Shown: positions 15,639 to 64,000 of the stretch, in pieces
Numbering within the stretch: position 1 is the first letter of the stretch
Layout of the letters: each line of letters opens with the position of its first letter
Source of the DNA: Nitrospirota bacterium
GTDB taxonomy: Bacteria > Nitrospirota > 9FT-COMBO-42-15 > HDB-SIOI813
Assembly: GCA_016212215.1 (NCBI GenBank)
Contig: JACRGV010000009.1
Location: forward strand, 63 to 64,062
Length of the DNA stretch: 64,000 nt
Reading direction: 5' to 3'
Position numbers and translations under genes: made by a program
The notes under the pieces: model-generated
What the model was told of the DNA's origin: nothing
The model's database searches: none
What the model saw: only the letters and a program-made list of their open reading frames with translations

Positions 15639-17109
15639 AAAGGGAAATTAACAACCATAAATACGTCCACCTTACTTCAAATAATCTTTCATGTCTTCCA
15701 GACTCAATCCCAGCCATTTGACTTTGTAGCCTGAATATATATTGAGCAAACCTCCGGCCTTTGTCTTTAAGGCATTAAGGTTTATCTTTCCTCTGTCGAG
15801 CTTGATGTCGGCCATAGTGATTTCCTTTTTCAAATCGTTGATTGCAAGAAGATCAATTTCATTCTGATTTCCTTTTTCCCAGTACGAACCGATCACATTA
15901 TAGTTTCCTGTTTCGGCAAAAATCTGATGAAAAAATCTTTCGAGAATACGTCCTGAATAACTCGAATAATCCCTGTTTATGATTTCCTTAATATAAGAAT
16001 AATTTTCTGTTTCAGCAGCGGATAGGTTTCGGAAAATGAACCGGAACCAGAAGTTAAGGAAGTTGTCTGTTATTTTATATTTTTGAAGACGTGAACCCGG
16101 TTTGGCGCCTACCGGCTTATGCCTTGAGATTAGTGCATAGTCATTCTCAAGTCTTGCTAAATAGGCGCCTGCATGTATCTCTAAAACAGATTCAATCTCT
16201 GTCCTTGCTGTCTTGCCGATAGATATAAGCTCGAGGATAGAAAAATACGTTCCATATTCTTTCCCGAACTCTTCTATAAGCAGGTTTTTCCCCTCGTTTA
16301 TAAAGGGAGAATTCGGTGTGAGCATAAAATTAAGTATATCTTTGTAAGATAAAGCATCATTCGATGTCAATATATCCAGATACTTAGGCATTCCGCCGGT
16401 AAGTACGTAACAATCAAAAAGCGACCGCATATCAGATGCCCTGTGATCTGATAATACTCTATAGGTATCTTTTATGGTAAATGGTTTAAGGAAAAGTATC
16501 CTGTCCGCCCTCCCGAATAAAGGCTCTTTTGATTCTTCAAAAATCTTATGCATTAACGAATAAACAGAGCCTATACAGATGAGATTCATTTTACATTTTG
16601 ATTTATTCAAATCCCATAGACGCTGAATCTCTGAATATGCTGCTGAATTTACATTGTAGAATTCCTGAAATTCGTCAATAATCAGGATGAACCGCTCTTT
16701 TTTTGAAAGGTCAAGAAGAAGGGCAAAGACATCCTTAAAAAATTTAATATCTCCAATGACAGGCAGTGGAAAATGTTTTTTTATCTCCTCAATATATTCC
16801 ATACAAAGCAGATGCTCTGACTTCCTGGAGACAAACAGGTAAATAAACTTATGCTTACCGGCAAATTCCAGTGCAAGCATTGTTTTACCGACACGCCGAC
16901 GCCCTGTAATCACAGTCATACGTGCGGTATCTTTTGACTGATTGTAAAGCCTGTTAAGTTCATGGAGTTCCTGTTTGCGATTATAAAACTTCATGGTTCA
17001 TATTCCCATATAATATATATATCGTTACTCTGGCGTAACTCTGGTTACGGTAATAAATATTACGATATATTGAAAAAAGTTTCAATACTCAAGTTTATTA
17101 CTATCTTAT
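15639..17109. mobile_element. Putative single-gene insertion carrying a DUF234-type AAA ATPase, flanked by a 103-bp direct duplication of the host-gene 3' end
   Basis: Bounded by repeats 15536-15638 and 17110-17212. No transposase or integrase is present. The ATPase gene sits antisense, convergent with the host gene. Confidence 0.45.
15672..16994 (-). CDS. AAA+ ATPase (Arch_ATPase/DUF234 family) with C-terminal PD-(D/E)xK-like motif
   Basis: Walker A GRRRVGKT and Walker B LIIDEF. C-terminal 'EIDLLAI...ADIKLD' matches a D...(D/E)xK nuclease-like signature. Paralog of 61484-62929. Confidence 0.75.
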   Translation of the reverse strand: MKFYNRKQELHELNRLYNQSKDTARMTVITGRRRVGKTMLALEFAGKHKFIYLFVSRKSEHLLCMEYIEEIKKHFPLPVIGDIKFFKDVFALLLDLSKKERFILIIDEFQEFYNVNSAAYSEIQRLWDLNKSKCKMNLICIGSVYSLMHKIFEESKEPLFGRADRILFLKPFTIKDTYRVLSDHRASDMRSLFDCYVLTGGMPKYLDILTSNDALSYKDILNFMLTPNSPFINEGKNLLIEEFGKEYGTYFSILELISIGKTARTEIESVLEIHAGAYLARLENDYALISRHKPVGAKPGSRLQKYKITDNFLNFWFRFIFRNLSAAETENYSYIKEIINRDYSSYSGRILERFFHQIFAETGNYNVIGSYWEKGNQNEIDLLAINDLKKEITMADIKLDRGKINLNALKTKAGGLLNIYSGYKVKWLGLSLEDMKDYLK

Positions 17110-17212
17110 ATTTGTTGCTTTAGATGATAAATAGATGTTAGATTATATTGAACTATAGAGTAACCCTGTTTACCAGGGTTATAATGCAGCAGTATATCTT
17201 TGGGAAAGATAG
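17110..17212. repeat. Direct repeat copy B (degenerate duplicate of gene 12600-15638 3' end)
   Basis: Aligns base-for-base with 15536-15638 with ~12 mismatches. Contains in-frame stops (taaatag), so it is non-coding. Confidence 0.85.
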
Positions 17213-17221
17213 GATGATTAC

Positions 17222-18328
17222 ATGACAACAAAAAAAATAGCGGTTTTAATAGTTCTTCTTATTGCAATAATTTTAAGTACAGAATTCATTTCAACAGGAA
17301 AGGCACTATCTGTCCAGCCGGCCCCTGCGACTGACCTGAAAATAGCGGGAGATGATATATCCGGGATATGGGCTTTTTTTATGCTTGACATGAAGGCTGA
17401 ATCCCTTCAATTACTGAATAATGATGATATAGATAATATGTTGCAGGTGAAGCATCCGTATGTTAAAGGGATTGCACCCAGATTTGTCTGGTCTACACTT
17501 AACCCCGCCCCTGGTGAATATAATTGGACGCCTGTTGATAAGGTTATTGAAAGGGCAAGTGCGTATAATAAAAAAGTTGTAATAAGGATTATCGGCGGAG
17601 GCAGGTCTGAGTGGACGCCTGGTTGGCTCTGGCTAAAAACAAAATATGTAGATCACCTTTGTATAACGAAACAAGCCGAATGTAGGTTACCCATAATTTG
17701 GGATACTGAATATCTCTCGGCATGGACTACCTTTGTTAAGGCATTAGGTTCACGGTACGATTCCAATCCGCGTGTGCAACGTGTTGCCATTACCAACGGG
17801 TCCGGCGGGGAGCTATATTATCTACGCGGCGACCTTATGACAAATGATCAAATAAACCAGGTGGTTAATTCCGGTTTAGGTGATAATTTCGTTCAGACAT
17901 GGAATAATATTTTAGATAATTATGCAGTATCATTTCCAACAAAGCCGTTGTTTATGGACTTGGCACCTACGATCAAAGATATTCCAAATATGAAGGGTGA
18001 CGATAAAGAAGAAGTTATTGCAAATTACGCTATATCAAAGTTCGGTCATAGACTTTATCTTCAACAGGATGGACTACACGAAAATACAGATACTTCAGGG
18101 ACTTTTATTAGCCATGCAATTATGAAAAACCATGCTGTAAACGGTAATATTATAGGATTTCAAACATTGGCACCGGATGCGCATGGAAATTTAAGGATGG
18201 CATTTGAAAAGGCACTATCCTATCCTATCCATTATATTGAGGTTTTTACTAAGGACCTTCAGGACCCTGATCAGCAGGATGCAATCCGATTTCTGTATGA
18301 AAGACTTAAAGCTATTCCTCCTCATTGA
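17222..18328 (+). CDS. Secreted TIM-barrel-like protein, possible glycoside hydrolase
   Basis: Signal/TM anchor, then 'HPYVKGIAPRFVWSTLNPAPGEYNW...VVIRI' reminiscent of a GH-type (beta/alpha)8 N-terminal strand. Weak assignment. Confidence 0.4.
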   Translation: MTTKKIAVLIVLLIAIILSTEFISTGKALSVQPAPATDLKIAGDDISGIWAFFMLDMKAESLQLLNNDDIDNMLQVKHPYVKGIAPRFVWSTLNPAPGEYNWTPVDKVIERASAYNKKVVIRIIGGGRSEWTPGWLWLKTKYVDHLCITKQAECRLPIIWDTEYLSAWTTFVKALGSRYDSNPRVQRVAITNGSGGELYYLRGDLMTNDQINQVVNSGLGDNFVQTWNNILDNYAVSFPTKPLFMDLAPTIKDIPNMKGDDKEEVIANYAISKFGHRLYLQQDGLHENTDTSGTFISHAIMKNHAVNGNIIGFQTLAPDAHGNLRMAFEKALSYPIHYIEVFTKDLQDPDQQDAIRFLYERLKAIPPH

Positions 18329-20249
18329 TAGTCATAAATTGATCAGCCTTGATGTTTGTTAATTTCTGTACAATTCCAGAAGGCCATTGTATTGTAAGAG
18401 TATCAATTGATGAGGCGGTTCCGGTTCCGAAATGCACCGGGCCGCTTCCCTGAGAACGAAGTTCCCCTCCTCCGCCTCCGTTTACTTCCCTGAATTGATT
18501 TTTCCCGTTAATTGTCAAGGTAAGTTTCGCTCCAATTCCAAGACGGTTACTTTTCTTCCCTGCCAATTGAACCTTTAGATAGTGATTAATTTTATTCCTG
18601 TTATTCTTATAAAGAATCACAGGTCCATAAGCTAATGGGTATAGCTCACCAACGCCGTTCTTCAGGATAAGGTCAAGGAAACCGTCGTTGTTATAGTCCC
18701 CCCATGCAGCCCCGAAGTGCCGGTATGAGGCTTTATTATCATCAGTTCCTGTATTGCCTGCAACATCTGTAAATGTCCCATCACCATTATTTTTAAATAA
18801 TATATTAGGGGCACCCCCGGAAATATCTCCTCCATCTACAACGTATAAATCCATGAGGCCGTCATTATCGTAATCACCCCATAAGGCTGTTGAATGTGAT
18901 CCAATTTTATCCATACCGGATATAGTTGTTACATCACTGAAAGTCCCATCTTTATTATTTTTATATAGCGTATCTATGAAACCGGTATCAACGGGTTTAA
19001 AATTTGTTTTGATATTAGTTAAGCTGTTGTCACCTGTTATTTTACCGTAGAATATATTCAGGTTACCGTTACTGCTGTAATATACATGCCAGACATCAGA
19101 CTCATCTTTCCAAATATAAAAACCTATTTCTGATACCGGCAGGATAGTGGGAACACCTGTAAGCCGTTCATCATCTCTTGTTAAAGTAAAAGGCACTGTA
19201 GAAGGGGTTGTTTTCCCGCCCCCTAAAAATATTTTGTTGGGTTGATGTGTATTTTTAATTAATAGATCAAAAGTAACATTACTGCTTTGAGTCTCAAATT
19301 TAATTTCTCCTGCTAATAATTCTATCTCATCTTTAAAATGTATTTCTGATGGTTTTGAAACTAAATTGTGGTAATTAGTGTGAACACCCCGTGCAATGTA
19401 TAAGTCCATATAGCCGTCATTATCGTAATCACCCCAGGAAACACCATTCCCTATTTTCTTCAAAAAACCGGATTCTGATGTTGTTTCAGTAAATGTATGT
19501 GAAGACGGATTATTTTTAAATAACCGGTCATTGTTGATACCTACAACAATCAGATCCATTGTGCCATCATTATTATAATCCGCCCACGAACAAGTCTGGC
19601 CATCAATATTGTCTAACCCGGTTTCTTTTGTTACATCTGTAAATGTTCCATTTCCATTATTTTTATATAATACGCTGGTAGATGCATAGTTTAAAACAAA
19701 CAGGTCAAGAAATCCGTCGTTGTCATAGTCAACCCAGAATGCACTCCTGCCGCGTCCATCGGCATTTTCAACTCCGGCAGTCAAAGTTACATTTGTAAAA
19801 TTTCCATGTCCATCGCCTTTCCAGAGTTCATCAGTTTTGCTGCCGGAGCAATTACCGTGACACCCGCCGTTTGTTATGAACATGTCTAAATTCCCATCGT
19901 TATCGTAGTCACCAATGGCTATGCCGTGACGGTCCTTGCCTCCCACAGGACTAATGCCTGTATTTTTTGTAATATTTTTAAATTTATCATTCCCCTTATT
20001 ATCATAAAAGGTTAGCTTTTCCCAATGTTGATGTATAAGTATGTCCGGTTGATTATTATTATTGAAGTCTGCCCAGATTGGGTTAATAAAACTTAGGCCG
20101 GTCTTTGCCTTACCCAGCACTGTTAATGATGTGACATCTGAAAAGGTTGTTTGCGAATCCTCATTTTTTGGATCATTTAAACACCCGTAGATTAAAATTG
20201 GAAGTATGAGCAGAATAGAAAGATAATACAATGTATTAATATTCTTCAT
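18312..20249 (-). CDS. CRTAC1-family protein (FG-GAP/VCBS repeats + ASPIC/UnbV C-terminal domain), lipoprotein
   Basis: Repeated 'WGDYDNDGxxDLxV' FG-GAP-like blocks. C-terminal 'LKVQLAG...SNRLGIGAKLTLTINGK...REV...GGGELRSQGSGPVHFGTG' is an ASPIC/UnbV domain. Start chosen at ATG 20249 (MKNINTLYYLSILLILPILIYGC, lipobox) to avoid overlap with the upstream paralog. Confidence 0.7.
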   Translation of the reverse strand: MKNINTLYYLSILLILPILIYGCLNDPKNEDSQTTFSDVTSLTVLGKAKTGLSFINPIWADFNNNNQPDILIHQHWEKLTFYDNKGNDKFKNITKNTGISPVGGKDRHGIAIGDYDNDGNLDMFITNGGCHGNCSGSKTDELWKGDGHGNFTNVTLTAGVENADGRGRSAFWVDYDNDGFLDLFVLNYASTSVLYKNNGNGTFTDVTKETGLDNIDGQTCSWADYNNDGTMDLIVVGINNDRLFKNNPSSHTFTETTSESGFLKKIGNGVSWGDYDNDGYMDLYIARGVHTNYHNLVSKPSEIHFKDEIELLAGEIKFETQSSNVTFDLLIKNTHQPNKIFLGGGKTTPSTVPFTLTRDDERLTGVPTILPVSEIGFYIWKDESDVWHVYYSSNGNLNIFYGKITGDNSLTNIKTNFKPVDTGFIDTLYKNNKDGTFSDVTTISGMDKIGSHSTALWGDYDNDGLMDLYVVDGGDISGGAPNILFKNNGDGTFTDVAGNTGTDDNKASYRHFGAAWGDYNNDGFLDLILKNGVGELYPLAYGPVILYKNNRNKINHYLKVQLAGKKSNRLGIGAKLTLTINGKNQFREVNGGGGGELRSQGSGPVHFGTGTASSIDTLTIQWPSGIVQKLTNIKADQFMTINEEE

Positions 20250-20289
20250 TATGTACTGCGTTGCTTTCAACTTAGCTTGCACTAAATGA

Positions 20290-22197
20290 TTACTCAACAA
20301 CTCTTAAAGTTTGGTTCGCCGGTATGTTTGTTAAAATTTGAGTTAATCCGGATGGCCACTTAATTATAAGAGAATTTACGGCCGTTGCAGCACCTGTTCC
20401 GAAATGCACCGGTACGTTGCCTTGAGAATGTAATTCACCGCCGCTGTTAACTTCCCTGTACTGGATTTGACCGTTAATATTTAATATCAACTTTGCACCA
20501 ATGGCAGACCGGTTACTTTGAGTCCCGGTTAACTTAACCTTTAGCCAGTGGCTATTATTTCCATTATTCCTGTAAAGGACATCACTGCCTGTTGCGAGGG
20601 GATATGACATTCCCACACCATTTTTCATGAACAGGTCTAAAAAACCATCATTATTATAATCACCCCATGCAGCACCGAAATGGCGGCTCTGAATATTGCC
20701 CGCATCAATACCATTATAAACAGCGACATTCGTAAATGTACCATTACCATTATTTTTATACAGGAGATTAGGTTTACTTCCTGAAATGTCTCCAGCCTCT
20801 ACAGTATATAGATCTATGAAACCGTCATTATTAAAATCTCCAAAGGCAGATGTTTGATGATTACCAAACTTCCCAACACCTGCTGAATCAGTAACATCAG
20901 TAAAAGTGCCGTTACCGTTATTTTTGTAAAGTGTATCTTTAAATTGAAGTCTTGCAGGGGTAAATGTCGGGACAACTGAGGTAAAACTACCATTACCTGT
21001 TATGACGCCATAATATACAGGCCACTTGTTATATCCGCTGTACCTCAGATGCCATGTGCCTGTATTATCTTTCCAGATATAATAACCTGTGTCTACTCCA
21101 CGGGTGTAAGCAGGCATTCCATCAAGCAAGGGGTCTGATGCAGATATTGTAAATGGCAGAGATGCAGGATTGGTTTTATTCCCTCCGATAAAAATCATGC
21201 CTTTTTGCGCGAGGTTACTAATATAAAGGTCAAAGGTTACACTTCCACTATTGGTAGTAAAATCAACGCCGTCTTCCAAGTTTTCCTCATCTAAGAATGT
21301 AATTTTAGATGCATTCCAGATTAAGACATCCCTCATCTTTTCTATCCCCCGTGAGACATGAAGGTCAGGCAGGCCGTCATTATTATAATCTCCCCAAGCT
21401 GTTCCCATTCCTATCCTCGGGAGAAGACCTGCTTGCGTTGTTATATCAGTGAAGATATGGGAAATGGGGTCATTTCTGAATAACCTGTCCTTTACAACCC
21501 CGGTTACAAGAATGTCCATCGCACCGTCATTATTATAATCTGCCCATGAACAGACCTTACCTGTTATTTTCATTAGGCCGGTTGCTGATGCAACGTTTGT
21601 AAATGTCCCATTGCCGTTATTCCTGTACATTACACTGTTAGTATTATAATTCAAGACAAACAGGTCTAAGAGTCCGTCATTATTATAGTCAACCCAGTAG
21701 GCACTCCTTCCTCGACCGGAGGAGTTTGCAACACCGGCGGCGGTTGTAACGTTTATAAACTTCCCCTGCCCGTTTCCTTTCCATAGTTCATCGCTCTTAC
21801 CGCCTATGCAGTTACCCATGCAGGCTCCATCTGTAATGTATATATCCAAGTTCCCGTCATTATCATAATCTCCCCATGCCATACCATGCCTGTCTACGCC
21901 TGTCACAGGAGTAATGCCTGAAGTTCCAATTATGTTAATAAACTTACCGGAACCATTATTCAGATAAAGAGATAGAGGCCCTACGTGGTGTTGAATAAGA
22001 ATATCAGGATTATCATCATTATTAAAATCACCCCACATCGGGTTATCGTAACTCGCCCCAACCTTCCCGAGTCCTGCTGAAGCAGTAACATTTGTAAAAG
22101 TTGCTGATGCATTAGTTACCTCAAATCCATAATTGATCAAGACAGATATGACGAAAGTAATCGAGCAAATAATAAAACGACACAGTTGTTTCTTCAA
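20290..22197 (-). CDS. CRTAC1-family protein (FG-GAP repeats + ASPIC/UnbV), tandem paralog
   Basis: Same architecture and motif blocks as 18312-20249 (WGDFNNDDNPDIL, ASPIC/UnbV C-terminus). N-terminal signal peptide. Confidence 0.7.
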   Translation of the reverse strand: MKKQLCRFIICSITFVISVLINYGFEVTNASATFTNVTASAGLGKVGASYDNPMWGDFNNDDNPDILIQHHVGPLSLYLNNGSGKFINIIGTSGITPVTGVDRHGMAWGDYDNDGNLDIYITDGACMGNCIGGKSDELWKGNGQGKFINVTTAAGVANSSGRGRSAYWVDYNNDGLLDLFVLNYNTNSVMYRNNGNGTFTNVASATGLMKITGKVCSWADYNNDGAMDILVTGVVKDRLFRNDPISHIFTDITTQAGLLPRIGMGTAWGDYNNDGLPDLHVSRGIEKMRDVLIWNASKITFLDEENLEDGVDFTTNSGSVTFDLYISNLAQKGMIFIGGNKTNPASLPFTISASDPLLDGMPAYTRGVDTGYYIWKDNTGTWHLRYSGYNKWPVYYGVITGNGSFTSVVPTFTPARLQFKDTLYKNNGNGTFTDVTDSAGVGKFGNHQTSAFGDFNNDGFIDLYTVEAGDISGSKPNLLYKNNGNGTFTNVAVYNGIDAGNIQSRHFGAAWGDYNNDGFLDLFMKNGVGMSYPLATGSDVLYRNNGNNSHWLKVKLTGTQSNRSAIGAKLILNINGQIQYREVNSGGELHSQGNVPVHFGTGAATAVNSLIIKWPSGLTQILTNIPANQTLRVVE

Positions 22198-22254: not shown

Positions 22255-24405
22255 CTATTTGACTTTATATCCAAGCAGCCATGCACTTGATTGGAATGAA
22301 GGAGACACTGTAAGGCTTTCATTGCTGATTACCTCTACAGCTCCTATGTGGATTTCTCCTGACACCTTGTTCCCGATATTAAATGTTTTAGAATAGGTTG
22401 AACCATTTGATATTAATTTGGACACGCTTTTCCCATCATCATAGAACAGGTAGGCATTAACAGGTACTGATGCAGGGGTAAATATTTCCATCTCAACTGT
22501 GACCTCATTGTTTTTATTCAAGATTGGTAATCCATCGGGTATATTACGGAGTTCTCGGGAGATGCCTGTTTCCCAAAAGACAACCCCTTCCTGATTTTTG
22601 ATTTTAACCCATTTTATTTTGAATTCCGGGTCCGGAGTTCCTGATGATGTCATAATGATTTCATTAGGCGAAATATGTGATACACTCCAGCTTCCATCAT
22701 CATTCTCATGGGCCTTAATATTGGATTTAATAGATATGTTGATATGTTTAGTAGTTGTGCCTAACTTTGCTTCGCCTGCCCCAATCCTTTCGACTTCAAC
22801 GTTTGCTATGGAACCATTGGCATCACCGGCTATATTCTGGAAAGAGATGTCTCCTGACAGGGTTCTTGTCAGTTCAGGCTGAGATGGTATTGTTATTTCA
22901 AAAAGGCTGTTGATTTTCAACAGCTTTTCTAAACTTATTGCATCCTTGATCTTATCAAGGGCTATATTTGACATTGTGCTTCCAGTCGTAAATGTCCATG
23001 AATAGTTATTTACCAATGCATTACCTGCAACGTCTTGAACCCCTGTAGTGATGGTTGCTGTGTATTGAATTTCGTAGCTAAGCGGGGCTGATGGTTTAAA
23101 TGTAGCAGTGCCGTTATTATAAGTAACATTTCCTGCTATCGTGCTGCCATCCGTTTTTTTCAAAGTAAATGTTTCTGTTGTTATGGTAAGTGGGTTCATA
23201 GCTTCAGAGAAGGTTGCAGAGACAGATGTATCAGCACTTATACCGGTAGAATTACCGGCAGGAGCAAACGAATCAAGAATTACTGCCGGTGGTGTGGTAT
23301 CCGGGGTTATGCCTGTAGTAAAGCTCCATGATTTGTTGGATGCCATATAATTGCCGGCCAGGTCCTTTACCCCTGTTGTGATTGTTGCATTGTAGGGAGA
23401 AGAGTCATCGAGAGAGACTGATGGGTTAAAAGTAGCAGTCATTCCATTGTAAGAGACATCTCCTGTAACATCGCTCCCGCCTGATTTAGCCAGAGTGAAT
23501 GTTGTTGTATTTACAGTGGATGTATTAATTGATTCGGAGAATGTTGCTGATATAGAAATGTTAGAAGGAATATCAGTTGTATTATTCTCAGGATATGTAG
23601 AGCTTACAGAAGGTGGTGTAGTATCCTCATCTAAAGCAGAACCGGTAGTGAAAGTCCATGTATAATCATTTGTCATCCCATTTCCTGCTGAATCTTTTAC
23701 TGCGGATGTAATATTTGCAGTGTAGTCAGTTAAATAACTTAATGGGGCTAATGGTTTAAAAGTAGCAGTATTTCCATTATAAGAAACCTCTCCTGTAACA
23801 CTGCTGCCGTCTGTTTTAGTTAAAGTAAATGTTGCTGTTGTTATTGTAGATGGATTGATAGGTTCCGAGAATGTTGCTGTTAAAGAAGCATTGGAAGCAA
23901 CACCTGTAGTATTTCTTTCAGGAGCTGTAGAATTTATAGAAGGAGGTGTAGAATCAGGCGCCGCATCTGTAGTAAAGCTCCATGAGAAACTATTGGTCAT
24001 GTTATTGCCTGATATGTCTTTTATGCCTGTAGTAATTGTTACTGTGTAAGTATTGGAGTGCAAAAGTGAGGCTGTTGGTGTAATGGTAACAGAGGTTCCA
24101 TTATATGTAACTATAATGGGTATATTAGTACCATTTGATGTCATTATAAAATTTGCTGTAATTAATGTGGATGGGTTAATCTGCTCACTGAATACAGCAG
24201 AGATAATTGTATTAATACCTACATCAGTTGAATTATTTGCAGGGGTTGTGGAAGTTACAGCCGGTGGAGTAGTATCAGAAGGTGAGGCACCTGCTGTGGA
24301 ATTTTGTGCACCTCCATTAATAGAACCACAGCCTCCGAACAGAGTCCCCAGAAATAATAATATGATTAAAACCTGTGCATAGGATAAAAGTGACCTCTTT
24401 TTCAT
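22255..24405 (-). CDS. Surface lipoprotein with five tandem bacterial Ig-like (SbsA/Big_5-type) domains + C-terminal beta-rich domain
   Basis: Five ~95-aa repeats 'DTTPP...ST.P..N.T.V....I.A.FSE.INPST...A.F.L.....S.V.G.VSYNG.TATF.P...L...T.Y.A.IT...KD..GN....N.SW.FTT'. Start at ATG 24405 (MKKRSLL...LFGGCGS lipobox) is preceded by a GGGGGA RBS. The track's ORF start at 24492 looks like an artefactual extension. Confidence 0.65.
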   Translation of the reverse strand: MKKRSLLSYAQVLIILLFLGTLFGGCGSINGGAQNSTAGASPSDTTPPAVTSTTPANNSTDVGINTIISAVFSEQINPSTLITANFIMTSNGTNIPIIVTYNGTSVTITPTASLLHSNTYTVTITTGIKDISGNNMTNSFSWSFTTDAAPDSTPPSINSTAPERNTTGVASNASLTATFSEPINPSTITTATFTLTKTDGSSVTGEVSYNGNTATFKPLAPLSYLTDYTANITSAVKDSAGNGMTNDYTWTFTTGSALDEDTTPPSVSSTYPENNTTDIPSNISISATFSESINTSTVNTTTFTLAKSGGSDVTGDVSYNGMTATFNPSVSLDDSSPYNATITTGVKDLAGNYMASNKSWSFTTGITPDTTPPAVILDSFAPAGNSTGISADTSVSATFSEAMNPLTITTETFTLKKTDGSTIAGNVTYNNGTATFKPSAPLSYEIQYTATITTGVQDVAGNALVNNYSWTFTTGSTMSNIALDKIKDAISLEKLLKINSLFEITIPSQPELTRTLSGDISFQNIAGDANGSIANVEVERIGAGEAKLGTTTKHINISIKSNIKAHENDDGSWSVSHISPNEIIMTSSGTPDPEFKIKWVKIKNQEGVVFWETGISRELRNIPDGLPILNKNNEVTVEMEIFTPASVPVNAYLFYDDGKSVSKLISNGSTYSKTFNIGNKVSGEIHIGAVEVISNESLTVSPSFQSSAWLLGYKVK

Positions 24406-35629: not shown

Positions 35630-35713
35630 TAGGGATGAGCATAGAGCAGAAGTAAGAAGCAAGAAATTAGAAGTAAGAAGATTGTACTGATAATAAACAC
35701 TAAGGGGGAATGA

Positions 35714-36742: not shown

Positions 36743-37195
36743 GCCCCCCCTCCCCTTAATCCCCTCCCGCAAGGGGAGGGGAGACATAAGAGAGATTCCT
36801 TACCCTGGGGGGAGCGGGTACATAGAATATGCTCAAGGGAGAGGGTACTAAGTTTATCCCCCCTCCCTTGACGGGAGGGGGTTAGGGGGAGGGTGAGCTA
36901 TGGTGATTTTCGGATGAACTCCCATGAGCGGGGCGATCACAAAGGGCAATGAAAACCCCACCCTCACCCTAACCCTCTCCCTGAGGGAGAGGGGGCTACG
37001 TTGATTCCCTCCCCTTCAAGGGGAGGGGTAGGGTGGGGATGGGGTTGATTTTCGGATGAACTCACATGAACCAGGGTTCACGAATGGCAATGAAAATCAA
37101 CGGGACAAGAATGTCCCGCCTATCCTCATAGATATGGATAGGCGGGGTTTTCTTACCCCGCCGGAAGGATTTTCGAGTGAGTTCAATCAGGAGGA
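36743..37195. repeat. Composite BIME-like cluster (at least 5 units in alternating orientation) + three-hairpin 75-bp module
   Basis: Alternating 'ccctcccc..ggggaggg' and inverse 'caccctcaccctaaccctctccctgagggagaggg' units joined by 'catga(a/g)cNNNgNtcacaaagg.catgaaaa' linker hairpins. Ends with 'cgggacaagaatgtcccgcctatcc…ggataggcggggttttcttaccccgcc'. Confidence 0.8.
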
Positions 37196-40135: not shown

Positions 40136-40560
40136 ATCGTGATTAGTGAATGGTGAATAGTAAAGGCCCCCTCACCCGGAGCCTCTCCCTGAGGGGGAGG
40201 GGGCTACGTTGATTCCCTCCCCTTCAAGGGGAGGGGTAGGGTGGGGATGGGGTTGATTTTCGGATGAACTGTCATGAAACGGAGGTTTCACAAAGGAGGA
40301 TGAAAACCACCCCCCCAATCCCCCCCTTGTTAAGGGGGGGAAAGTTCCTTTGGTGCTCAATGGCCAACGGCAATCCCCCCCTTTGTTCAAGGGGGGGCAT
40401 GGGGGGGTCATTTTCGGATGAACCCACATGAACCAGGGTTCACAAAGGGACATGAAAATCAGCGGGACAAGAAAGTCCCGCCTATCCTCGTAGAGATGGA
40501 TAGGCGGGGTTTTCTTACCCCGCCGGAAGGGATTTTCGGATGAATGCAAATGAGGTTAAA
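40126..40560. repeat. Composite BIME-like cluster incl. 3' 'cagtgaat' module, variant C-tract hairpins and three-hairpin module
   Basis: Starts at leuA's last codons ('aaagcagtgaatcgtgattagtgaatggtgaatag'). Contains 'cccccctt gttaa gggggg' variant hairpins. Ends with the 75-bp module before leuC. Confidence 0.8.
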
Positions 40561-41875: not shown

Positions 41876-42063
41876 ATTTCCCTCCCCCTTGAGGGGGGAG
41901 GGGCAGGGTGGGGGTGAGCTATGGAGATAATCAGATGAACTCCCATGAAACAGGGTTTTACAAAGGGGCATGAAAATCAGCGGGACAAGAATGTCCCGCC
42001 TATCCTCAATTTACACATGGATAGGCGGGGTTTTCTTACCCCGCCGGAGGAATTTTTCGAATG
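41876..42063. repeat. BIME-like cluster + three-hairpin module ending in leuD start codon
   Basis: 'ccctcccccttgaggggggaggggcagggtgggggtgagctatggagataatcagatgaactcccatgaaacagggttttacaaaggggcatgaaaatcagcgggacaag…ttttcgaATG'. Confidence 0.8.
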
Positions 42064-42621
42064 AAAGATATTATCAGGGGTAAAGCCTACGTTCTATGCA
42101 ATGACATTGATACTGACCAGATTATTCCGGCACAGCATCTTGTGTACAGCCTGAGTGACCATGAAGAGAGGAAGATGTACGGACGGTTTGCATTATCAAG
42201 CGTCCCGGATTCTCTGGCCGGTCTGCCTGATGGACATATCAGGTTTGTTAAAGATGATACCTTTAAATCAGAGTTTAATATAATTATAGCCGGTAAGAAT
42301 TTCGGATGCGGCTCATCGCGTGAACATGCACCGATTGCTTTGAACATAGCAGGGGTCGAGGCAGTTGTTGCTGAATCTTATGCAAGGATTCATTACAGAA
42401 ACGTTGTTGACGGCGGTTTCTTTATCCCCTTTGAAATAAATCAGCATATTTATAAGGAAGCAAAAACAGGGGATGACATTGAAATTGATGTAAAGAAAGG
42501 CATCCTTAAAAACCTTTCACAGGACAAGGAATATAAACTTCAGCCATTGGGTGATGTAGAAGCAATACTGCGGGCCGGTAGTATATTTGAGTATGCCAGG
42601 CAAGAGGGGATGCTGAAGTAA
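42061..42621 (+). CDS. leuD: 3-isopropylmalate dehydratase small subunit
   Basis: Aconitase swivel-domain blocks (IIAGKNFGCGSSREHAP). Its ATG lies inside the terminal 'ttttcgaATGaaa' module of the upstream repeat. Confidence 0.85.
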   Translation: MKDIIRGKAYVLCNDIDTDQIIPAQHLVYSLSDHEERKMYGRFALSSVPDSLAGLPDGHIRFVKDDTFKSEFNIIIAGKNFGCGSSREHAPIALNIAGVEAVVAESYARIHYRNVVDGGFFIPFEINQHIYKEAKTGDDIEIDVKKGILKNLSQDKEYKLQPLGDVEAILRAGSIFEYARQEGMLK

Positions 42622-42697
42622 GAAGATTGATGCTATAGGCAAGAATTAAGAAGTAAGAAGCAAGAAGATAGAGACACAAGTTAGAGAAAAAAAGATA

Positions 42698-45555: not shown

Positions 45556-45730
45556 CCCCCTCACCCGGTGCCCCCCCCGCCTGCCTCCCCCCGCAAAGGA
45601 GGGGGGAGGAATTTGGTAGGAATTTAATTGCAGCTCTCCCGCCAGGGGAGAGGGAGGCTAACGTTTATTCCCCCTCCCTTGACGGGAGGGGGTTAGGGGG
45701 AGGGTGAGCTACGAAGATTTTCAGGAGAAC
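45556..45730. repeat. BIME-like cluster
   Basis: 'cccctcacccggtgcccccccgcctgcctccccccgcaaaggaggggggag…ccccctcccttgacgggagggggttagggggagggtgagctacgaagattttcaggaga'. Confidence 0.8.
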
Positions 45731-46994: not shown

Positions 46995-47090
46995 ATCCCT
47001 ATCCAGCCAGGGGAGAGGGTGTTAAGTTTATTCCCCCTCCCTTGACGGGAGGGGGTTAGGGGGAGGGTGAGCTATGGATATTTTCACATG
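46995..47090. repeat. BIME-like units upstream of queA
   Basis: 'ccagccaggggagagggtgttaagtttattccccctcccttgacgggagggggttagggggagggtgagctatggatattttcacATG'. Confidence 0.8.
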
Positions 47091-48853: not shown

Positions 48854-48972
48854 GTAGACCCCGCCTTATCTTCAAAATATCAATAAAACCAAAAAAATAT
48901 TGTAAAGAAACACCCACTAAAAAATAAAATAAATTAAAGTCTTTATTTGTGGCATTCGTCTTATTCGTGAGA

Positions 48973-49045
48973 AAACCAGCGGGACAAGAAAGTCCCGCCT
49001 ATCCTAAGTAGAAATGGATAGGCGGGGTTTTCTTACCCCGCCGTA
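48973..49045. repeat. Three-hairpin 75-bp module (copy 4)
   Basis: 'cagcgggacaagaaagtcccgcctatcctaagtagaaatggataggcggggttttcttaccccgcc'. Confidence 0.8.
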
Positions 49046-49073
49046 GGTAACCCATTATATTCGGAGGTGATTT

Positions 49074-51682: not shown

Positions 51683-52040
51683 AACCCTCATGAGCGAGGC
51701 GCTCACAAAGGACAATGAAAACCCCACCCTCACCCTAACCCTCTCCCTGAGGGAGAGGGGGCTATGTTGATTCCCTCCCCTTCAAGGGGAGGGGTAGGGT
51801 GGGGATGGGGTTGATTTTTGGATGAACCGCCATGAGCCTTCGGCTCACAAAGGTACATGAAAATGAGGCCCCCTCACCCGGAGCCCCCCTCCTGCCTCCC
51901 CCCGCAAAGGAGGGGGGAGAAATTTGGTAGGAATTTAATTGCAGCTCTCCCGCCAGGGGAGAGGGATGCTAAGTTTTTCCCCCTCCCTTGACGGGAGGGG
52001 GTTAGGGGGAGGGTGAGCTATGGAGATTTTCGGATGAACT
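51683..52040. repeat. Composite BIME-like cluster (at least 5 units)
   Basis: Linker hairpins with compensatory stems (tgagcg-ag-gcgctca; tgagcc-ttc-ggctca). Ends with the 'gattttcggATGaa' module. Confidence 0.8.
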
Positions 52041-53054: not shown

Positions 53055-53140
53055 AGATGAGCGTAGGGGAGAAGTAAGAAGTTAGAAGTAAGAAGTTAGA
53101 AGCAAGAAGTAAGAAGTTAGAAGTAAGAAGGCTGAAGACT
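53055..53140. repeat. Heptamer tandem repeat (gtaagaa/gttagaa)n, about 11 units
   Basis: 'gaagtaagaagttagaagtaagaagttagaagcaagaagtaagaagttagaagtaagaaggctgaag', immediately after the E1alpha stop. Confidence 0.8.
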
Positions 53141-53289
53141 GGAGGTAGGAGTCCGGAACAAGATTTTTTAACTCAGACAGGACCATCTGTCATCCCCGAG
53201 TTCCTCTATCGGGGATATAGCTTATATAAAAACAGATTCCCGCTTAATGACTGCGGGAATGACAATAGAGGTACGAAAATTGGAGGGTT

Positions 53290-59186: not shown

Positions 59187-59361
59187 TCTTGCCTCTTTCA
59201 ATAAGAAAATATATAATCCTTCCACTTTGAAAAACCATTTCTCACACAAAGACACAAAGGGACTGAAAATTAAATTATCCTTCGACAGGCCTGTCCTGAG
59301 CGAAGCCGAAGGGCTCAGGATGACATCCATGGTGTCATGGTGAACCTGTCGAACCATGACA

Positions 59362-59447
59362 AGAAAATCAGCGGGACAAGAATGTCCCGCCTATCCTCAT
59401 AGATATGGATAGGCGGGGTTTTCTTACCCCGCCGGAGGGGGCGGATG
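59362..59447. repeat. Three-hairpin 75-bp module (copy 5) supplying the TonB receptor ATG
   Basis: 'cagcgggacaagaatgtcccgcctatcctcatagatatggataggcggggttttcttaccccgccggagggggcggATGaac'. Confidence 0.8.
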
Positions 59448-61364
59448 AACACTATTGTAAAACGATTACTGCAAATTAAGCTGTTTGTTATACTATCCAT
59501 TCTTCTCTCATACTCATATTCTTATGCCGGTGATATAAGCGGTGATATGGAGGATTTACTTGCACTTTTTTCAGAAGAAAAGATGGTAATTACCCCCTCT
59601 AAATATTTACAGCCGGTGAGTGAATCCCCATCAACCACAACCGTTATTACATCTGAAGAGATTATGCACTCAGGGGCAACAACGATTCCTGATATTTTGA
59701 GAATGGTACCTGGTATGGAAGTTATGCAGACAAGCACCCCGGAATTTAATCTTAGTATCAGAGGAGACAATCAGTTACTTGCCGACAAACTCCTTGTCCT
59801 TATAGACGGCCGTACATTTCAGGAAGAGGTGCAGAATACAGTAATATGGAGCGCGATCCCCATATCACTGGAAGAGATTGACCATATAGAAATAATCCGG
59901 GGGCCAGGCTCAGCCATGTGGGGGGCGAATGCCTTTGACGGTGTAGTGAATATAATTACAAAACGACCCGGCAGTATGAAAGGTACAACTATATCAGCAG
60001 TCGGCGGGCAGGTTGGGACAGGTATAGGGAATCTGATTCATGAAGGGGAAAATAATGGGATAGCCTACAGATTTTCTGTTGGTTATAGCCGGGCAGATAC
60101 ACTTCCAGGCAGGGAAGATGCAAGGTTTCATGTAGATGGCCGTGAACAGGGGCTTGATGTCTCACGCGGCAATGTAATGATTGAATACCGGCTTTCCCAA
60201 AAAAGAAGGGCCATTCTTGCCGGCGGAAAAAGTGAGCTTCCGGTTTATGATGGACCAAGGTTTGATGACGGTTGGGGTGATACGGATATTCAATATGACT
60301 ATCTGCAATTCAATTATGAGGGGGAAAATTCACAATTCAGGGCTTACTGGAATAAATATGACATCAAGATAAATTATTTGGATATAAGCGGGCAAAACGA
60401 CCCGGATAATCCATTACCATTTGTTGTTGACATTAACTCTGAACTATATAACCTTGAGTGGAATTATAGATTGGACTTAGGGAATTCACACCAGATAATT
60501 GGCGGGGTTAATTATCGTCATAATGATGCAGGAGGACCTTTCATAGATCCTGCTACACGCCGCCCATTGAGTATGACCGGACTTTTTCTACAGGAAGAGT
60601 GGCGGCCTGTGAAACCGGTTACTGTGATAATCGGTGCAAGATATGATCGCCATACAATCTTTGATAATACCATAAGCCCAAGGGCAGCAATTCTTTATCA
60701 ACCGGTGCCCCATAATACCTTTCGTATATCTTCCGGTATGGCATACAGGTCACCTACCCCATTTGAAATATTTGCTCTTTATGGTGCAAATCCTGATCTT
60801 GCTTATGAAAAGATTCTTACGTATGAGGCAGGATATTCCACGCTTTTATTTCAAAGGTTGAAAGGAGATGTTAACTTCTTCTATAACAGATTAACTGACC
60901 TGATAGATGTAGAGGCAGACCCTAATATTAATAAATTTAATTATGGGGTTTACGGCGGTGAAATCAACGGGGAGCTATTATTAAATGAACGGTTTACAAC
61001 CTTCTTTAATTATTCAAATCAAAAGTTACATAGATATAATAATAAAAGGGTGATACGAAACAATCCTGCACATAAGGTTAATGGCGGAATCCGTCTTCAT
61101 ATCAGTGACTCTTTATCAGCAAATCTGATGATACATTACGTCTCAAAGATTGAATATGATTCAAACATGCCGCCAAAACTTTTAGTATCTGATACAACAG
61201 ACCCTTATACACTTGCTAATCTACAGATTAAATATAGTGTATTAAAAAATAAGATGGATATTGCTTTATCAGTATTCAATCTGTTTAACAATGTCCACAG
61301 GGAACACTGGTTCGGTGATGAAATAGGTACCCGTGTGCTGGCGCATATTACTTACCGTATGTAA
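59445..61364 (+). CDS. TonB-dependent outer membrane receptor
   Basis: Signal peptide, plug domain with TonB box-like 'EKMVITPS', 'IEIIRGPGSAMWGANAFDGVVNIITK' block, and C-terminal beta-barrel ending in aromatic 'HITYRM'. The ATG is supplied by a repeat module. Confidence 0.8.
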   Translation: MNTIVKRLLQIKLFVILSILLSYSYSYAGDISGDMEDLLALFSEEKMVITPSKYLQPVSESPSTTTVITSEEIMHSGATTIPDILRMVPGMEVMQTSTPEFNLSIRGDNQLLADKLLVLIDGRTFQEEVQNTVIWSAIPISLEEIDHIEIIRGPGSAMWGANAFDGVVNIITKRPGSMKGTTISAVGGQVGTGIGNLIHEGENNGIAYRFSVGYSRADTLPGREDARFHVDGREQGLDVSRGNVMIEYRLSQKRRAILAGGKSELPVYDGPRFDDGWGDTDIQYDYLQFNYEGENSQFRAYWNKYDIKINYLDISGQNDPDNPLPFVVDINSELYNLEWNYRLDLGNSHQIIGGVNYRHNDAGGPFIDPATRRPLSMTGLFLQEEWRPVKPVTVIIGARYDRHTIFDNTISPRAAILYQPVPHNTFRISSGMAYRSPTPFEIFALYGANPDLAYEKILTYEAGYSTLLFQRLKGDVNFFYNRLTDLIDVEADPNINKFNYGVYGGEINGELLLNERFTTFFNYSNQKLHRYNNKRVIRNNPAHKVNGGIRLHISDSLSANLMIHYVSKIEYDSNMPPKLLVSDTTDPYTLANLQIKYSVLKNKMDIALSVFNLFNNVHREHWFGDEIGTRVLAHITYRM

Positions 61365-61369
61365 TTTCT
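61320..61369. repeat. Direct repeat copy A (3' end of TonB-dependent receptor gene)
   Basis: 50 bp, 48/50 identical to 63287-63336. Confidence 0.85.
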
Positions 61370-61483
61370 TACATTGTAATTATGTGGAGTTATGGGGGGA
61401 TTTTCTGTTTTAGGCTGATCATTATGCTTCTTTAAATCTGCTCTCGCTTTGACCTCATCCCATTCAAATGTGATTTATACAAC

Positions 61484-62929
61484 TTAACCGGATAAGTCAG
61501 GATTACCTTTCTCCTGAATCAGTTCGTCAGGCCCGATTAACATCACCTCTCCTCTCGTACTTGCCTCCCGTAGTTCCTTTGAAAAAAGACCGCGCCCTGA
61601 AAATAGGGCAAGCCTTACCTCATGATCCGCTATCAGGGACTTCACACGTATCCTGAGTTTTTCCAGGTAACCGTAGGTAATCGGTTCACCCCACTTGCAC
61701 TCACCCATGATCAGTGAACCGTCTCCGAGTTCTGCACAGATATCAATATCAAAATCCCTGTCCCAGTGCCTCCCAATCCGCTTAATATACAATTCACTTT
61801 TTGGTAACCAGTCATAAACCAGAAAATCCCTGCAAAGGGATTCAAATGCATCGCCCATGAAATCATCAAGAAATGGGAGTACACCATTTTTTACCACTGC
61901 TTTTCCGCTCATAGATCTTATTGCAGTCTGGTTCGGCAGTACGAACCTGTACCAGAACCTGATAAAATGGTCTGAAATGCGGTAACGATTGTTGCGTGAT
62001 TTTTCCGGCGCACGTGAGAAGAAGGGCGCTGTCTTTTCCACTATTCCAAGCTCAATCAGGGTCGTCAGGTAGCGGGCAGCCGTTGGGGTATTTTCACACC
62101 CGGATATGTTTGCGATCTCCCCTATGGATGTCTTGCCTTCAGCAAGTGCCCTCAGCACTGAATTGTATCTGGCCGGTTCCCGTAACTCCTGCTGGAGGAT
62201 GAAAAAAACCTCGTTGTACAGGAACCCTGTAGGAGAAAAGGCAGTTGCTGTAAGCATATCCGCGAGTTTGGTTTTTTCTTCAATCAGGTTAAGGTAAGCA
62301 GGGATGTTCCCAAAAATTCCATAAGTTTTAAGGCGGTCACGTACAGGCCACCCTTCGGAAAACTTAAAAACAGAGGCCGGTCTCAGCCCCTCTAGCTTCA
62401 ACTGACCTGTACGTCTTCCAAAAAGCGGTGACCTTTCTCCCAGTACCTCGTCTTCCATGAAAGATACGGACGAACCGCAAAGGATAAGGAACATCTTCGT
62501 GTGGCGGCCTGTGTTATCCCAAAACCTCTGGATGATGGACGGAAGAGCCGGATTCCCCTTGCACAGATACGGGAACTCATCTAATATGACGAGAAGACGT
62601 TCTGTCCTTGCCCTCTCTGCAAGCAAAGTCAAAGCCCCGTGCCAGTCATGGAATGCGACACCGGAAAGCACAGCATCCCCGGGAAGGGACGACACAACGC
62701 TATGCTGAAAGTCCCTCAGGTTTAAAGCCTCATCCTGCAGCGAAGCCTCATAATAGACATGCCGCCGCCCTTTTGCCCCTTTTGCCCGTTTTGCCCCATT
62801 TGCAATGTGCAGCAACAATTCGGATTTGCCTATTCTGCGTCTGCCGTACATTATAAAAAGTTCGGCTTTGCCACTATCATATCGTTGGATTAAGGCTTCA
62901 AGTTCATTCTCACGTCCGATAAATCGCAT
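61484..62929 (-). CDS. AAA+ ATPase (Arch_ATPase/DUF234 family) with C-terminal PD-(D/E)xK-like motif
   Basis: Walker A GRRRIGKS and Walker B ILDEFPYL. C-terminal 'DFDIDICAEL...GECKWG' fits a D...ExK signature. Diverged paralog of 15672-16994. Confidence 0.75.
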   Translation of the reverse strand: MRFIGRENELEALIQRYDSGKAELFIMYGRRRIGKSELLLHIANGAKRAKGAKGRRHVYYEASLQDEALNLRDFQHSVVSSLPGDAVLSGVAFHDWHGALTLLAERARTERLLVILDEFPYLCKGNPALPSIIQRFWDNTGRHTKMFLILCGSSVSFMEDEVLGERSPLFGRRTGQLKLEGLRPASVFKFSEGWPVRDRLKTYGIFGNIPAYLNLIEEKTKLADMLTATAFSPTGFLYNEVFFILQQELREPARYNSVLRALAEGKTSIGEIANISGCENTPTAARYLTTLIELGIVEKTAPFFSRAPEKSRNNRYRISDHFIRFWYRFVLPNQTAIRSMSGKAVVKNGVLPFLDDFMGDAFESLCRDFLVYDWLPKSELYIKRIGRHWDRDFDIDICAELGDGSLIMGECKWGEPITYGYLEKLRIRVKSLIADHEVRLALFSGRGLFSKELREASTRGEVMLIGPDELIQEKGNPDLSG

Positions 62930-63044
62930 GATATAAAGACCTCCTGTTGCTATTATACGATATATTATAAAATACGATTAATTAAATCAAGAGTTATTTA
63001 TGATTTTGTCTTGACCCGGGGGATTCTGGGGACATCCATGATAA

Positions 63045-63225
63045 GGGTCTGTCATGAAATAACTTGTGCATTTAGGCGCTCAGATTTCGGTCAGGTTTGA
63101 GTGCGACCGATTGAGCAAACCCGAAGGCGTAGTTGAATCTACGCTGAGGGGTTGCGATTGATGAGCACACAAAGATGGCCGGAAGATGAGATGCATAAAT
63201 GTATAGGTTATTTTATGACAGACCC
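63045..63225. repeat. 181-bp element bounded by 18-bp inverted repeats (gggtctgtcatgaaataa / ttattttatgacagaccc)
   Basis: Near-perfect terminal inverted repeat. Internal hairpin gcgtagttgaatctacgc. Could be a MITE or a structured 5' leader. Confidence 0.5.
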
Positions 63226-63286
63226 TAAGTATAGAATCAAGAATCTGAATTTAAAATGGATGTCCGCAGAATCCATCGGGTTGTTA

Positions 63287-63336
63287 GAAATAGGAACCCG
63301 TGTGCCGGCGCATATTACTTACCGTATGTAATTTCT
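63287..63336. repeat. Direct repeat copy B (duplicate of TonB receptor 3' end)
   Basis: 48/50 identical to 61320-61369, including a non-functional copy of the receptor's stop codon context. Confidence 0.85.
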
Positions 63337-63426
63337 GACGTTTGCTTACCAATTTTACTTCTGTTATATTTAGCCGTACGTTTAACCTTTCCTTTTTTTT
63401 CATTTAGCATCAACACGGGGTGATTT

Positions 63427-64000
63427 ATGAAGTTATCATCAGCATTGAGAAAAAGGCTTGCTGAAACACTGAAGGAAAAGGACTATCTTGAGACAATATT
63501 AAATGGAATAAAACACAGGATAATACTTATAAACAGGGAGTATAAGATACTCCATTTTAATAAGGCTGCTTTAGGAGATCGCAGGGATTTAATAGAGAAT
63601 AATGAACTGTATTGTTACAGAATATTTGAGAACCGAGATTCAATCTGTCCTGACTGTCCTGCAACAACCACATTTGTAACCGGAGAAGTAGTTCACATTC
63701 AGAGGCAATATAAAAACAGTTCAGGAGATGAATTAAGTTATAAGATATCTTCATATCCTGTAATGAACAGAAACGGACATGTTGAGAATGCAATATTAGC
63801 CGCAAGAGACATAACAGAGATTTACAAAGCAGAGCAGATGAAGAATGACCTGCTTAGAATGTTGACACATGATATAAGAAACCCTGTACTTGCAACTGCA
63901 CATACACTTGAGACCCTTCTTAATTGTTCATCCACACAAAAGAAATTTGAAACCCCTGTTCAGGAGATTTTATGTGAGACAAGGGATAACTGTGAACTGT
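63427..64000 (+). CDS. PAS-domain sensor histidine kinase (5' partial; continues beyond the window)
   Basis: Open frame from ATG 63427 to the window end. PAS-like region, then an H-box 'LTHDIRNPV'. Absent from the ORF track because no stop falls inside the window. Confidence 0.6.
   Translation, partial: MKLSSALRKRLAETLKEKDYLETILNGIKHRIILINREYKILHFNKAALGDRRDLIENNELYCYRIFENRDSICPDCPATTTFVTGEVVHIQRQYKNSSGDELSYKISSYPVMNRNGHVENAILAARDITEIYKAEQMKNDLLRMLTHDIRNPVLATAHTLETLLNCSSTQKKFETPVQEILCETRDNCEL

Follow-up and report, generated by a model that had tools for sequence, protein, structure and literature searches.

How a solitary defence gene enters a chromosome without a transposon, a phage or an integrase is poorly understood, and a 64,000-nt stretch of the genome of an uncultured Nitrospirota bacterium (GenBank assembly GCA_016212215.1, contig JACRGV010000009.1, positions 63 to 64,062; hereafter the window, whose own numbering we use throughout) raises this question twice. 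At two places in the window, a single gene coding for an ATPase with a DUF234 domain lies antisense to an intact host gene and is followed by a second copy of the end of that gene. We call these arrangements cassette 1 and cassette 2, and their genes ATPase 1 and ATPase 2. Sequence comparisons support the view that they are independent insertions of a horizontally acquired mobile gene. We give a probability of roughly two in three to the reading in which each cassette is the scar left by an 'insertion with long target duplication' (Nobusato et al. 2000, as cited in Furuta et al. 2010, NAR 38:2428, PMC2853133), made via host-mediated, end-independent joining.

Two ATPase genes between duplicated gene ends

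The host gene of cassette 2 is intact and codes for a TonB-dependent receptor of 639 aa (59445–61364, + strand), with Pfam Plug and TonB_dep_Rec_b-barrel domains. The first-pass annotation of the window had reported that the end of this gene recurs downstream over 50 bp with two mismatches. This was borne out: positions 61320–61369 match 63287–63336 (50 nt, blastn identity 96%), and a repeat search extended the match to 56 nt at 93% identity (61320–61375 and 63287–63342). The left, or proximal, copy comprises the final 45 nt of the receptor gene, including its TAA stop codon, plus 11 nt. The repeat, which reads GAAATAGG...TAATTTCT, is present in two copies only within the 8-kb neighbourhood. 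The right, or distal, copy is a pseudo-3'-end that translates as EIGTRVPAHITYRM versus EIGTRVLAHITYRM, with one Leu to Pro change.

The insert between the two copies is 1,911 bp long, and its sole open reading frame (ORF) is that of ATPase 2 (61484–62929, − strand, 481 aa). A filler of 108 nt (61376–61483), devoid of homology with the 3' flanks of other ATPase-2-clade copies, separates the left repeat from the ATPase 2 stop codon. On the other side, 357 nt extend from the start of ATPase 2 to the right repeat. They begin with the promoter/operator region (62930–63008, − strand), the one stretch of non-coding sequence that is also conserved at the other loci of the gene. Most of the 357 nt is filled by a separate, near-perfect hairpin element of 280 nt (63009–63286, + strand), which had gone unmentioned in the first-pass annotation and which reaches up to the right repeat. 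The downstream host gene (63427–64000, + strand; Pfam PAS_9) codes for a PAS-domain sensor and runs off the window. We also noted a weak leftward extension of the repeat by ~47 nt into the outer arm of the hairpin (~100 nt in total), which is non-significant (39 of 500 shuffles reach the score, p ~0.08). The possibility that the left arm of the hairpin is an inverted copy of TonB sequence was rejected, with 214 of 500 shuffles reaching the score.

Cassette 1 has a similar layout. Its host gene (12600–15638, + strand) is intact and codes for a PMT_2 (GT39-type) glycosyltransferase of 1012 aa, assigned by Pfam and by a 72% identical orthologue (P0242). The terminal 113 nt of this gene, including the stop codon, form the left repeat (15526–15638), which recurs at 17100–17212 with 88% identity by blastn and flanks 1,461 bp; the repeat search extended it to 136 nt at 83%. 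ATPase 1 (15672–16994, − strand, 440 aa) has the same two domains, ATPase_2 and DUF234, as assigned by Pfam, with a variant nuclease motif, EID...ADIK. Its upstream region (16995–17099, − strand) contains a palindromic ATATATCGTTAC...GTAACGATATAT motif. The right repeat is a decaying pseudo-3'-end with two in-frame stops, another feature beyond the first-pass annotation, and it runs directly into the native junction with the host gene that follows, which codes for a GH42-like protein (17222–18328, + strand; 69% identity over 133 aa with its orthologue in locus L091, BLASTP E 2e-63).

Locus L091 provides the empty site of cassette 1. In this relative, the gene for the PMT_2 orthologue (72%) is followed by 43 nt and then by the orthologue of the 17222–18328 gene, with neither an ATPase gene nor a duplication. 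Both copies of the cassette-1 repeat align to the single PMT_2 3' end of L091. Over the 113 positions compared, the two copies have 17 states in common that differ from L091, and private changes number five in the left copy and six in the right one. The 17 lineage-specific states present in both copies show that resident sequence was duplicated on the spot, and the copies have drifted since; judged from these alignments, its origin is in situ.

The three-way comparison with L091 also bears on the idea that the element brought its own copy of the host 3' end, as an att site of a site-specific element or as the replacement C-terminus of a homing cassette. Homing-endonuclease cassettes that replace the C-terminus of their host protein occur in some fungal mitochondrial genes. 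The architecture found here, with an intact end, an insert and a displaced pseudo-end, is superficially alike, and the insert codes for a predicted nuclease. However, the proximal copy is not foreign, as it has the 17 lineage-specific states in common with the distal copy and a similar number of private changes. In addition, there is no integrase nearby, the repeats differ wholly between loci, with no common core, and many of the repeats found at other loci (see below) are intergenic terminators rather than gene ends. This explanation is thus very improbable, and we rejected an att-site or homing cassette with a foreign replacement 3' end.

A resident-like sequence in both copies would equally be expected if the donor were a close relative. 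In such a Campbell-type scenario, circles produced by repeat-by-repeat excision in a sibling strain would integrate by a RecA-dependent crossover with the resident 3' end. Repeats of 56 and 113 bp suffice for homologous recombination, and Furuta et al. proposed an amplification-and-release life cycle through such repeats (PMC2853133). Yet this scenario explains only the spread among near-identical genomes and presupposes an earlier event that made the duplication; it leaves the many different targets across the family unexplained, and no circular form or tandem amplification was seen in the window. We regard it as improbable.

The two cassettes appear to have arisen separately. As the first-pass annotation had stated, the inserts share no other sequence (best blastn E 0.099), and its proposal of independent origins is in line with the 113-nt repeat of cassette 1 and the L091 empty site. 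It had also described the two ATPases as diverged paralogues about one-third identical; the identity measured is slightly lower, 28% over 345 aa (E 1e-31). Each repeat is present in two copies within the 64-kb window. Pfam searches revealed no integrase or transposase in or beside either cassette, each insert having the ATPase ORF alone. The neighbouring genes code for TPR, PMT_2, GH42-like, FG-GAP, ABC substrate-binding, sCache, TonB receptor and PAS proteins.

Flanking repeats across DUF234 loci

If these cassettes reflect a general behaviour of the gene, other DUF234 copies should carry flanking duplications as well, a check that the first-pass annotation had proposed for the copies of this genome, and copies of this kind were found in two independent samples. 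We fetched 80 DUF234 loci from GTDB genomes and 80 ATPase-1-clade loci from metagenomes, compared the 1.2-kb upstream flank of each gene with its downstream flank by BLAST and called a repeat above 40 bits. Direct repeats of 24–121 nt were detected at 8 of 67 GTDB loci and 6 of 53 metagenome loci, for a total of 14/120 (~12%). The neighbouring genes of at least 300 aa that served as a control have such repeats in 7 of 236 cases (Fisher odds ratio 4.3, p = 0.0017).

These numbers also address the possibility of coincidence, namely that gene ends were duplicated in tandem locally with no link to the ATPase genes. Short duplications of this sort are known to happen, and chance could in principle place two of them in one window. 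However, the ATPase gene lies exactly between the copies in both cassettes and at the 14 further loci, none of 500 mismatched flank pairs scored above 31.5 bits, and the L091 empty site lacks the ATPase and the duplication alike. Coincidence is hardly credible; the recurrence statistics and the empty site refute it.

The repeats themselves are diverse. All but one are two-copy within their locus, and the inserts of 1.4–2.7 kb correspond to about one gene. Repeat lengths range overall from 17 to 136 nt, an approximately eightfold spread. The duplicated target is the end of a coding gene at L076, L153 and L169, the repeat of L169 beginning at the TGA of the neighbouring gene; it is an intrinsic-terminator hairpin at L010, L054, L063 and L072, and plain intergenic DNA at further loci. 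The termini of 17 repeat-flanked inserts have no motif in common, and we found neither inverted repeats nor microhomology to the target DNA there. The first-pass annotation had proposed a mobile gene family with a host-3'-end duplication signature. The mobility of the gene agrees with our data, whereas a 3'-end signature specific to the family does not: as the repeats copy whatever lay at the insertion point, vary in length and also flank other genes, they correspond to a target duplication.

The control genes with repeats are mostly of a like kind: two AAA_14-DUF4143 genes, an HTH-HATPase-DUF4325 gene, a YhcG nuclease gene, a TnpB gene and a TOTE gene. The control is thus contaminated, so that the contrast with ordinary genes is understated and an effect of the nuclease is inseparable from one of other young genes.

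Tight repeats were also observed at several genes beside DUF234 genes. They flank AAA_14-DUF4143 genes with 71 nt at 90% identity (L085:1033–2265) and with 32 nt (L038:3400–4614), an HTH-HATPase-DUF4325 gene with 38 nt at 95%, abutting the ORF (L028:1985–2986), and a YhcG gene with 19 nt (L053:2813–3829). Locus L038 (3359–9548; metagenome-assembled genome of a Bacillota bacterium, JAWSUV010000013.1) displays a 52-nt terminator-like repeat, TGACGCAGGGGGACGGTTCCGGCTGCGTCTTTTT…, at positions 3359, 4684, 6399 and 9478, plus an inverted copy. These repeats bracket three consecutive single-gene cassettes coding for an AAA_14-DUF4143 protein, a DUF234 ATPase and a TOTE AEP-helicase-PLD protein. This array looks like the product of serial insertions at a terminator that was duplicated again each time.

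The ATPase-nuclease gene, its mobility and a proposed joining step

The first-pass annotation had pointed to an antisense 481-aa ATPase with the motifs GRRRIGKS and DIDICAEL…GECKW between the repeat copies, and Pfam searches and conservation across 86 homologues agree with this description. ATPase 2 has, in N-to-C order, ATPase_2 (PF01637; E 1.6e-20, 74.4 bits for a cut-off of 33.2) and DUF234 (PF03008; E 9e-17, 61.8 bits for a cut-off of 22.5) domains, plus an IclR-type helix-turn-helix (HTH). ATPase 1 scores 60.0 and 48.3 bits for the same two domains, above the same gathering thresholds. The Walker A and B motifs are GRRRIGKS and VILDEF in ATPase 2, and GRRRVGKT and IIIDEF in ATPase 1; residues G29, R31, R32, G34, K35, D117 and E118 are invariant across the 86 homologues. 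In the nuclease motif of ATPase 2, DIDICAEL...GECKW, K412 is invariant, and D396 and E410 are present in at least 90% of them. The C-terminal ~100 residues are predicted to form an alpha-beta-beta-beta-alpha-beta layout (helix 342–378, strands 382–389, 394–401 and 406–412, helix 419–430 and strand 438–444). DUF234 has been placed in the PD-(D/E)xK nuclease superfamily (PMC3424549), and both the motif and the modelled core layout make the DUF234 domain of ATPase 2 a predicted nuclease of this type. On its sequence features, ATPase 2 is an ORC/STAND-like AAA+ ATPase with a winged HTH and a predicted PD-(D/E)xK (DUF234) nuclease domain.

Both proteins match the PADLOC hidden Markov models (HMMs) of PDC-S27 (E 1.7e-46 for ATPase 2 and 5.1e-43 for ATPase 1). 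PDC-S27 is a single-gene candidate phage-defence system with an ATPase fused to a PD-(D/E)xK domain, and most candidates of this kind await validation (PMC12988326). The cellular role of the window ATPases may be an ATP-dependent, nuclease-based defence. Homologues are also found on 162 plasmid and 7 phage records, every one of them below 45% identity. Sequence searches of NCBIfam and the PDB with the ATPase gave no matches.

The ATPase 2 ORF harbours a 9-nt tandem repeat, CCCTTTTGC, in ~4 copies (62768–62803), revealed by the repeat search, which encodes an extra AKRAKGAKG-type loop just after Walker A. Close homologues have 467 aa compared with 481 aa for ATPase 2, and the predicted local distance difference test (pLDDT) of the model dips to 76 at residues 41–50. 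The ORF is also ~6 codons longer than those of the 467-aa homologues through a 1-nt difference near its 3' end. Upstream, ATATATCGTA-type motifs are present in both ATPase genes (16995–17099 and 62930–63008), within the ATATATCGTTAC…GTAACGATATAT palindrome in the case of cassette 1; this motif may be an autoregulatory operator for the winged-HTH domain.

The mobility of the gene is apparent from its genomic contexts. Homologues of ATPase 2 at 73–87% identity occupy five or six unrelated contexts, next to ABC transporter and glycosyltransferase genes (L001), ADH/NrdD genes (L004, L006), a PIN toxin-antitoxin pair (L005) and others (L089, L090). Pairwise DNA homology among these contexts, for some of which 150–500 nt of flank are available, covers the ORF plus at most ~78 nt 5' of the ATG (range 65–78) and at most 5 nt past the stop codon. 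The GC content of ATPase 2 is 0.48, compared with 0.41 for the window. We also noted that the short-read contigs L001, L002, L003, L005, L089 and L090, which carry close homologues of ATPase 2, end 48–154 nt 5' of the start codon, in or beside the conserved promoter; a gene that occupies more than one context in the same sample would be expected to produce such breaks.

Could the gene move by itself? The ATPase-nuclease might be an autonomous single-gene mobile element whose winged HTH binds DNA and which makes two offset nicks or breaks, the host then filling the long overhangs, so that target duplications of long and variable length would result. In favour of this, the flanking repeats are enriched about fourfold over those of neighbouring genes, the inserts correspond almost exactly to one gene, and the copies have in common a well-delimited unit that extends from −78 as far as the stop codon. 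The other scar-bearing genes also code for nucleases or ATPase-nucleases (AAA_14-DUF4143, YhcG, HATPase-DUF4325), and restriction enzymes, including the solitary mcrA, carry the scar too (PMC2853133). However, the insert ends have neither a conserved terminal sequence nor inverted repeats, the length of the duplication varies eightfold, and no DDE, tyrosine, serine or HUH strand-transfer domain was found in the protein. Furthermore, the high turnover of defence genes can account for the enrichment, and an incoming gene would need to be expressed before its integration. We consider such a self-moving element unlikely. It is similarly doubtful that DUF234 (PDC-S27) and sister AAA_14-DUF4143 (PDC-S01) genes are both autonomous one-gene elements whose own ATP-driven nuclease would make widely offset breaks in the target, and whose repeated hits at duplicated terminators would build cassette arrays as in L038; if true, this would represent a recombinase-free route to defence islands.

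The absence of shared termini, the eightfold spread in repeat length and the lack of a nearby recombinase count against a transposase or recombinase that recognises specific sequences and favour offset, end-independent joining, our preferred reading. According to this reading, one gene with its own short promoter would be acquired horizontally and would enter the chromosome by illegitimate recombination that is independent of its ends. The left joint would lie at some distance from the right one (56 bp for cassette 2, 113 bp for cassette 1), so that the resident stretch between them ends up on both sides of the insert. The proximal copy would preserve the whole host gene, and the distal copy the native junction with the downstream gene before decaying. 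The joints would probably be made by the host repair or replication machinery rather than by the ATPase-nuclease; for example, a foreign fragment might be captured where a short tandem duplication or a template switch creates a novel joint, followed by selection. In tightly packed operons, such as that of cassette 1 with host genes ~10–43 nt apart, only those events that duplicate a gene end would survive, which would explain why the window repeats end at the stop codon.

Several points weigh against insertion by host-mediated joining. Host-mediated illegitimate joining is what we infer for this route, the molecular mechanism of which has never been demonstrated. The exact empty site of cassette 2 was not found among five TonB-orthologue and two close-ATPase-homologue look-ups. 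Orthologues of the TonB receptor in other Nitrospirota are 86%, 67% and 47–49% identical. The 86% orthologue (L087), the closest relative for cassette 2, has an arrangement that differs from that of the window: its 1,991-nt contig ends ~42 nt past the stop codon in a hairpin element, with no ATPase gene at the junction. No ATPase gene follows the 67% (L088) and 47–49% (L172 and L173) orthologues either, the divergence of which is too large for the site to be located. Relative to neighbouring genes, the enrichment is modest, and it is confounded by age, the scar being visible only in recent acquisitions. As only young insertions keep the scar and defence genes turn over fast, such an enrichment cannot settle whether the gene promotes its own insertion. 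The near-coincident ends of the conserved unit (−65 to −78 and the stop codon) could hint at a defined element, and could equally reflect the loss of alignable signal in neutral flanks at ~80% identity. Finally, the antiphage role of the DUF234/PDC-S27 family is that of a candidate.

We rejected the view that the hairpin of cassette 2 (63009–63286) is part of the ATPase unit: close homologues are without it, and homology stops at −78. It may be either an independent element resembling a miniature inverted-repeat transposable element (MITE) or part of the inserted DNA. Its + strand folds at −150.8 kcal/mol (z −16.5), compared with −106 for the − strand, and has 14 G-U pairs versus one on the − strand. 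The better fold and the excess of G-U pairs suggest selection on a + strand RNA. Rfam searches of the whole window at gathering thresholds and of 61300–63450 at permissive ones gave no relevant match to the hairpin or cassette, the only hits in the latter region being sub-threshold CRISPR-repeat look-alikes inside the ORF. The hairpin has no second copy in the window, and its core was not found in the viral contigs and 172 other loci searched. In L087 (Logan SRR22387916), the 43 nt right after the TonB stop codon (1949–1991), at which the contig ends, correspond to the inner arm of the hairpin at 97.7% identity in the opposite orientation.

The window and its relatives contain other repeats. 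An intergenic element of ~115 nt (…CAGCGGGACAAGAATGTCCCGCCTATCCTC.TAGATATGGATAGGCGGGGTTTTCTTACCCCGCCGGAGG…) with two hairpins is present in five copies (37069–37182, 40431–40544, 41949–42065, 48948–49062 and 59340–59453), each just 5' of a + strand gene, including that of the TonB receptor; it might serve these genes as a common regulatory leader, or else be a small mobile repeat. Palindromic repeats with G/C runs (CCCCCTCCCTTGACGGGAGGGGGTTAGGGGGAGGGTGAGC and relatives) occur in at least 17 copies in the intergenic spacers of the 33000–57100 region (e.g. 36859–36898, 45670–45709, 47033–47072 and 51979–52018), and AAGAAG-type 14-nt tandem runs are located at 35635–35697, 42615–42691 and 53057–53161. 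Two adjacent FG-GAP/ASPIC-type genes (18312–22197, − strand) have internal repeats of ~150 nt and ~550 nt (families D10, D14 and D18), and three 330-nt repeats at 22982–23941 code for Big_5 domains. On the 3' side of the 67% TonB orthologue, a 700-nt non-coding gap harbours about three tandem units of ~110 nt (AAGTGACAGAAAATTTAAC…GGAGTATATCT…; L088:2040–2290).

Comparison with known systems

Classical transposons and integrative islands also leave direct repeats of target DNA upon insertion. Unlike them, the cassettes have no terminal inverted repeats, fixed short duplication, transposase or integrase, att core or conserved ends. Regarding DNA transposons and insertion sequences, we found no transposase domain, the termini of 17 inserts have no common or inverted sequence, and the duplications extend over 17–136 nt; regarding integrase islands and homing elements, there is no integrase, and cassette 1 contains no foreign copy of the repeat.

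As for the protein, the closest known systems include the archaeal ATPase_2 proteins, the STAND NTPases and the Orc1/Cdc6 NTPases. The solved archaeal ATPase_2 proteins PAB2304 (PDB 2qen) and SSO1545 (PDB 2fna) lack the C-terminal DUF234 nuclease domain. STAND NTPases (NB-ARC, Avs) have large C-terminal sensor repeats, the absence of which in the window ATPases places the latter outside that class. The PADLOC systems PDC-S27 and PDC-S01 have the same domain plan and are likewise solitary single genes, but the window copies have housekeeping genes as neighbours, with no defence island around them. Published work on PDC-S27 and PDC-S01 covers their distribution and phylogeny (PMC12988326), and in the literature on these two systems we found no paper on how the genes are inserted.

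The closest parallel to the cassettes themselves is that of restriction-modification (RM) genes. RM genes inserted with long target duplications are flanked by repeats of 46–423 bp, often across a start or stop codon and with no other mobile element, and the cases include the solitary mcrA; such repeats are commoner around RM genes than around average genes, with no demonstrated mechanism (PMC2853133). This rarely studied, scar-leaving route has been without an established mechanism since its description for RM genes. Its repeated use by the very abundant DUF234/PDC-S27 family provides a large natural collection of junctions for work on the mechanism, and a one-gene system in which the ATPase and nuclease residues to be mutated are evident is a tractable handle. 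For genome annotation, short fragments of gene ends beside such genes should be taken as insertion scars rather than as pseudogenes that arose separately.

Judged by the features that Furuta et al. used, both cassettes have repeats longer than 30 bp, inserts shorter than 20 kb and no mobility gene, and for cassette 1 a relative, L091, has an empty site with one copy, to which the two repeats align. Like the RM insertions, the cassettes are small nuclease-encoding units that have neither a transposase nor an integrase and are flanked by direct repeats of tens to hundreds of bp, which for cassette 1 correspond to the one copy in L091. In both cases a stop or start codon often falls within the repeats, the target gene remaining intact; single-gene cases such as mcrA are known among the RM insertions. 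They differ in their cargo, an ATPase_2-DUF234 (PDC-S27) gene, in their host, an uncultured Nitrospirota bacterium, in the two independent events within one 64-kb window and in the presence of the scar at the scale of a family, at ~12% of 120 loci in two clades. What is new here is thus the extension of a known type of insertion to DUF234/PDC-S27 genes, with two events in one window, one empty site and a recurrence of ~12%.

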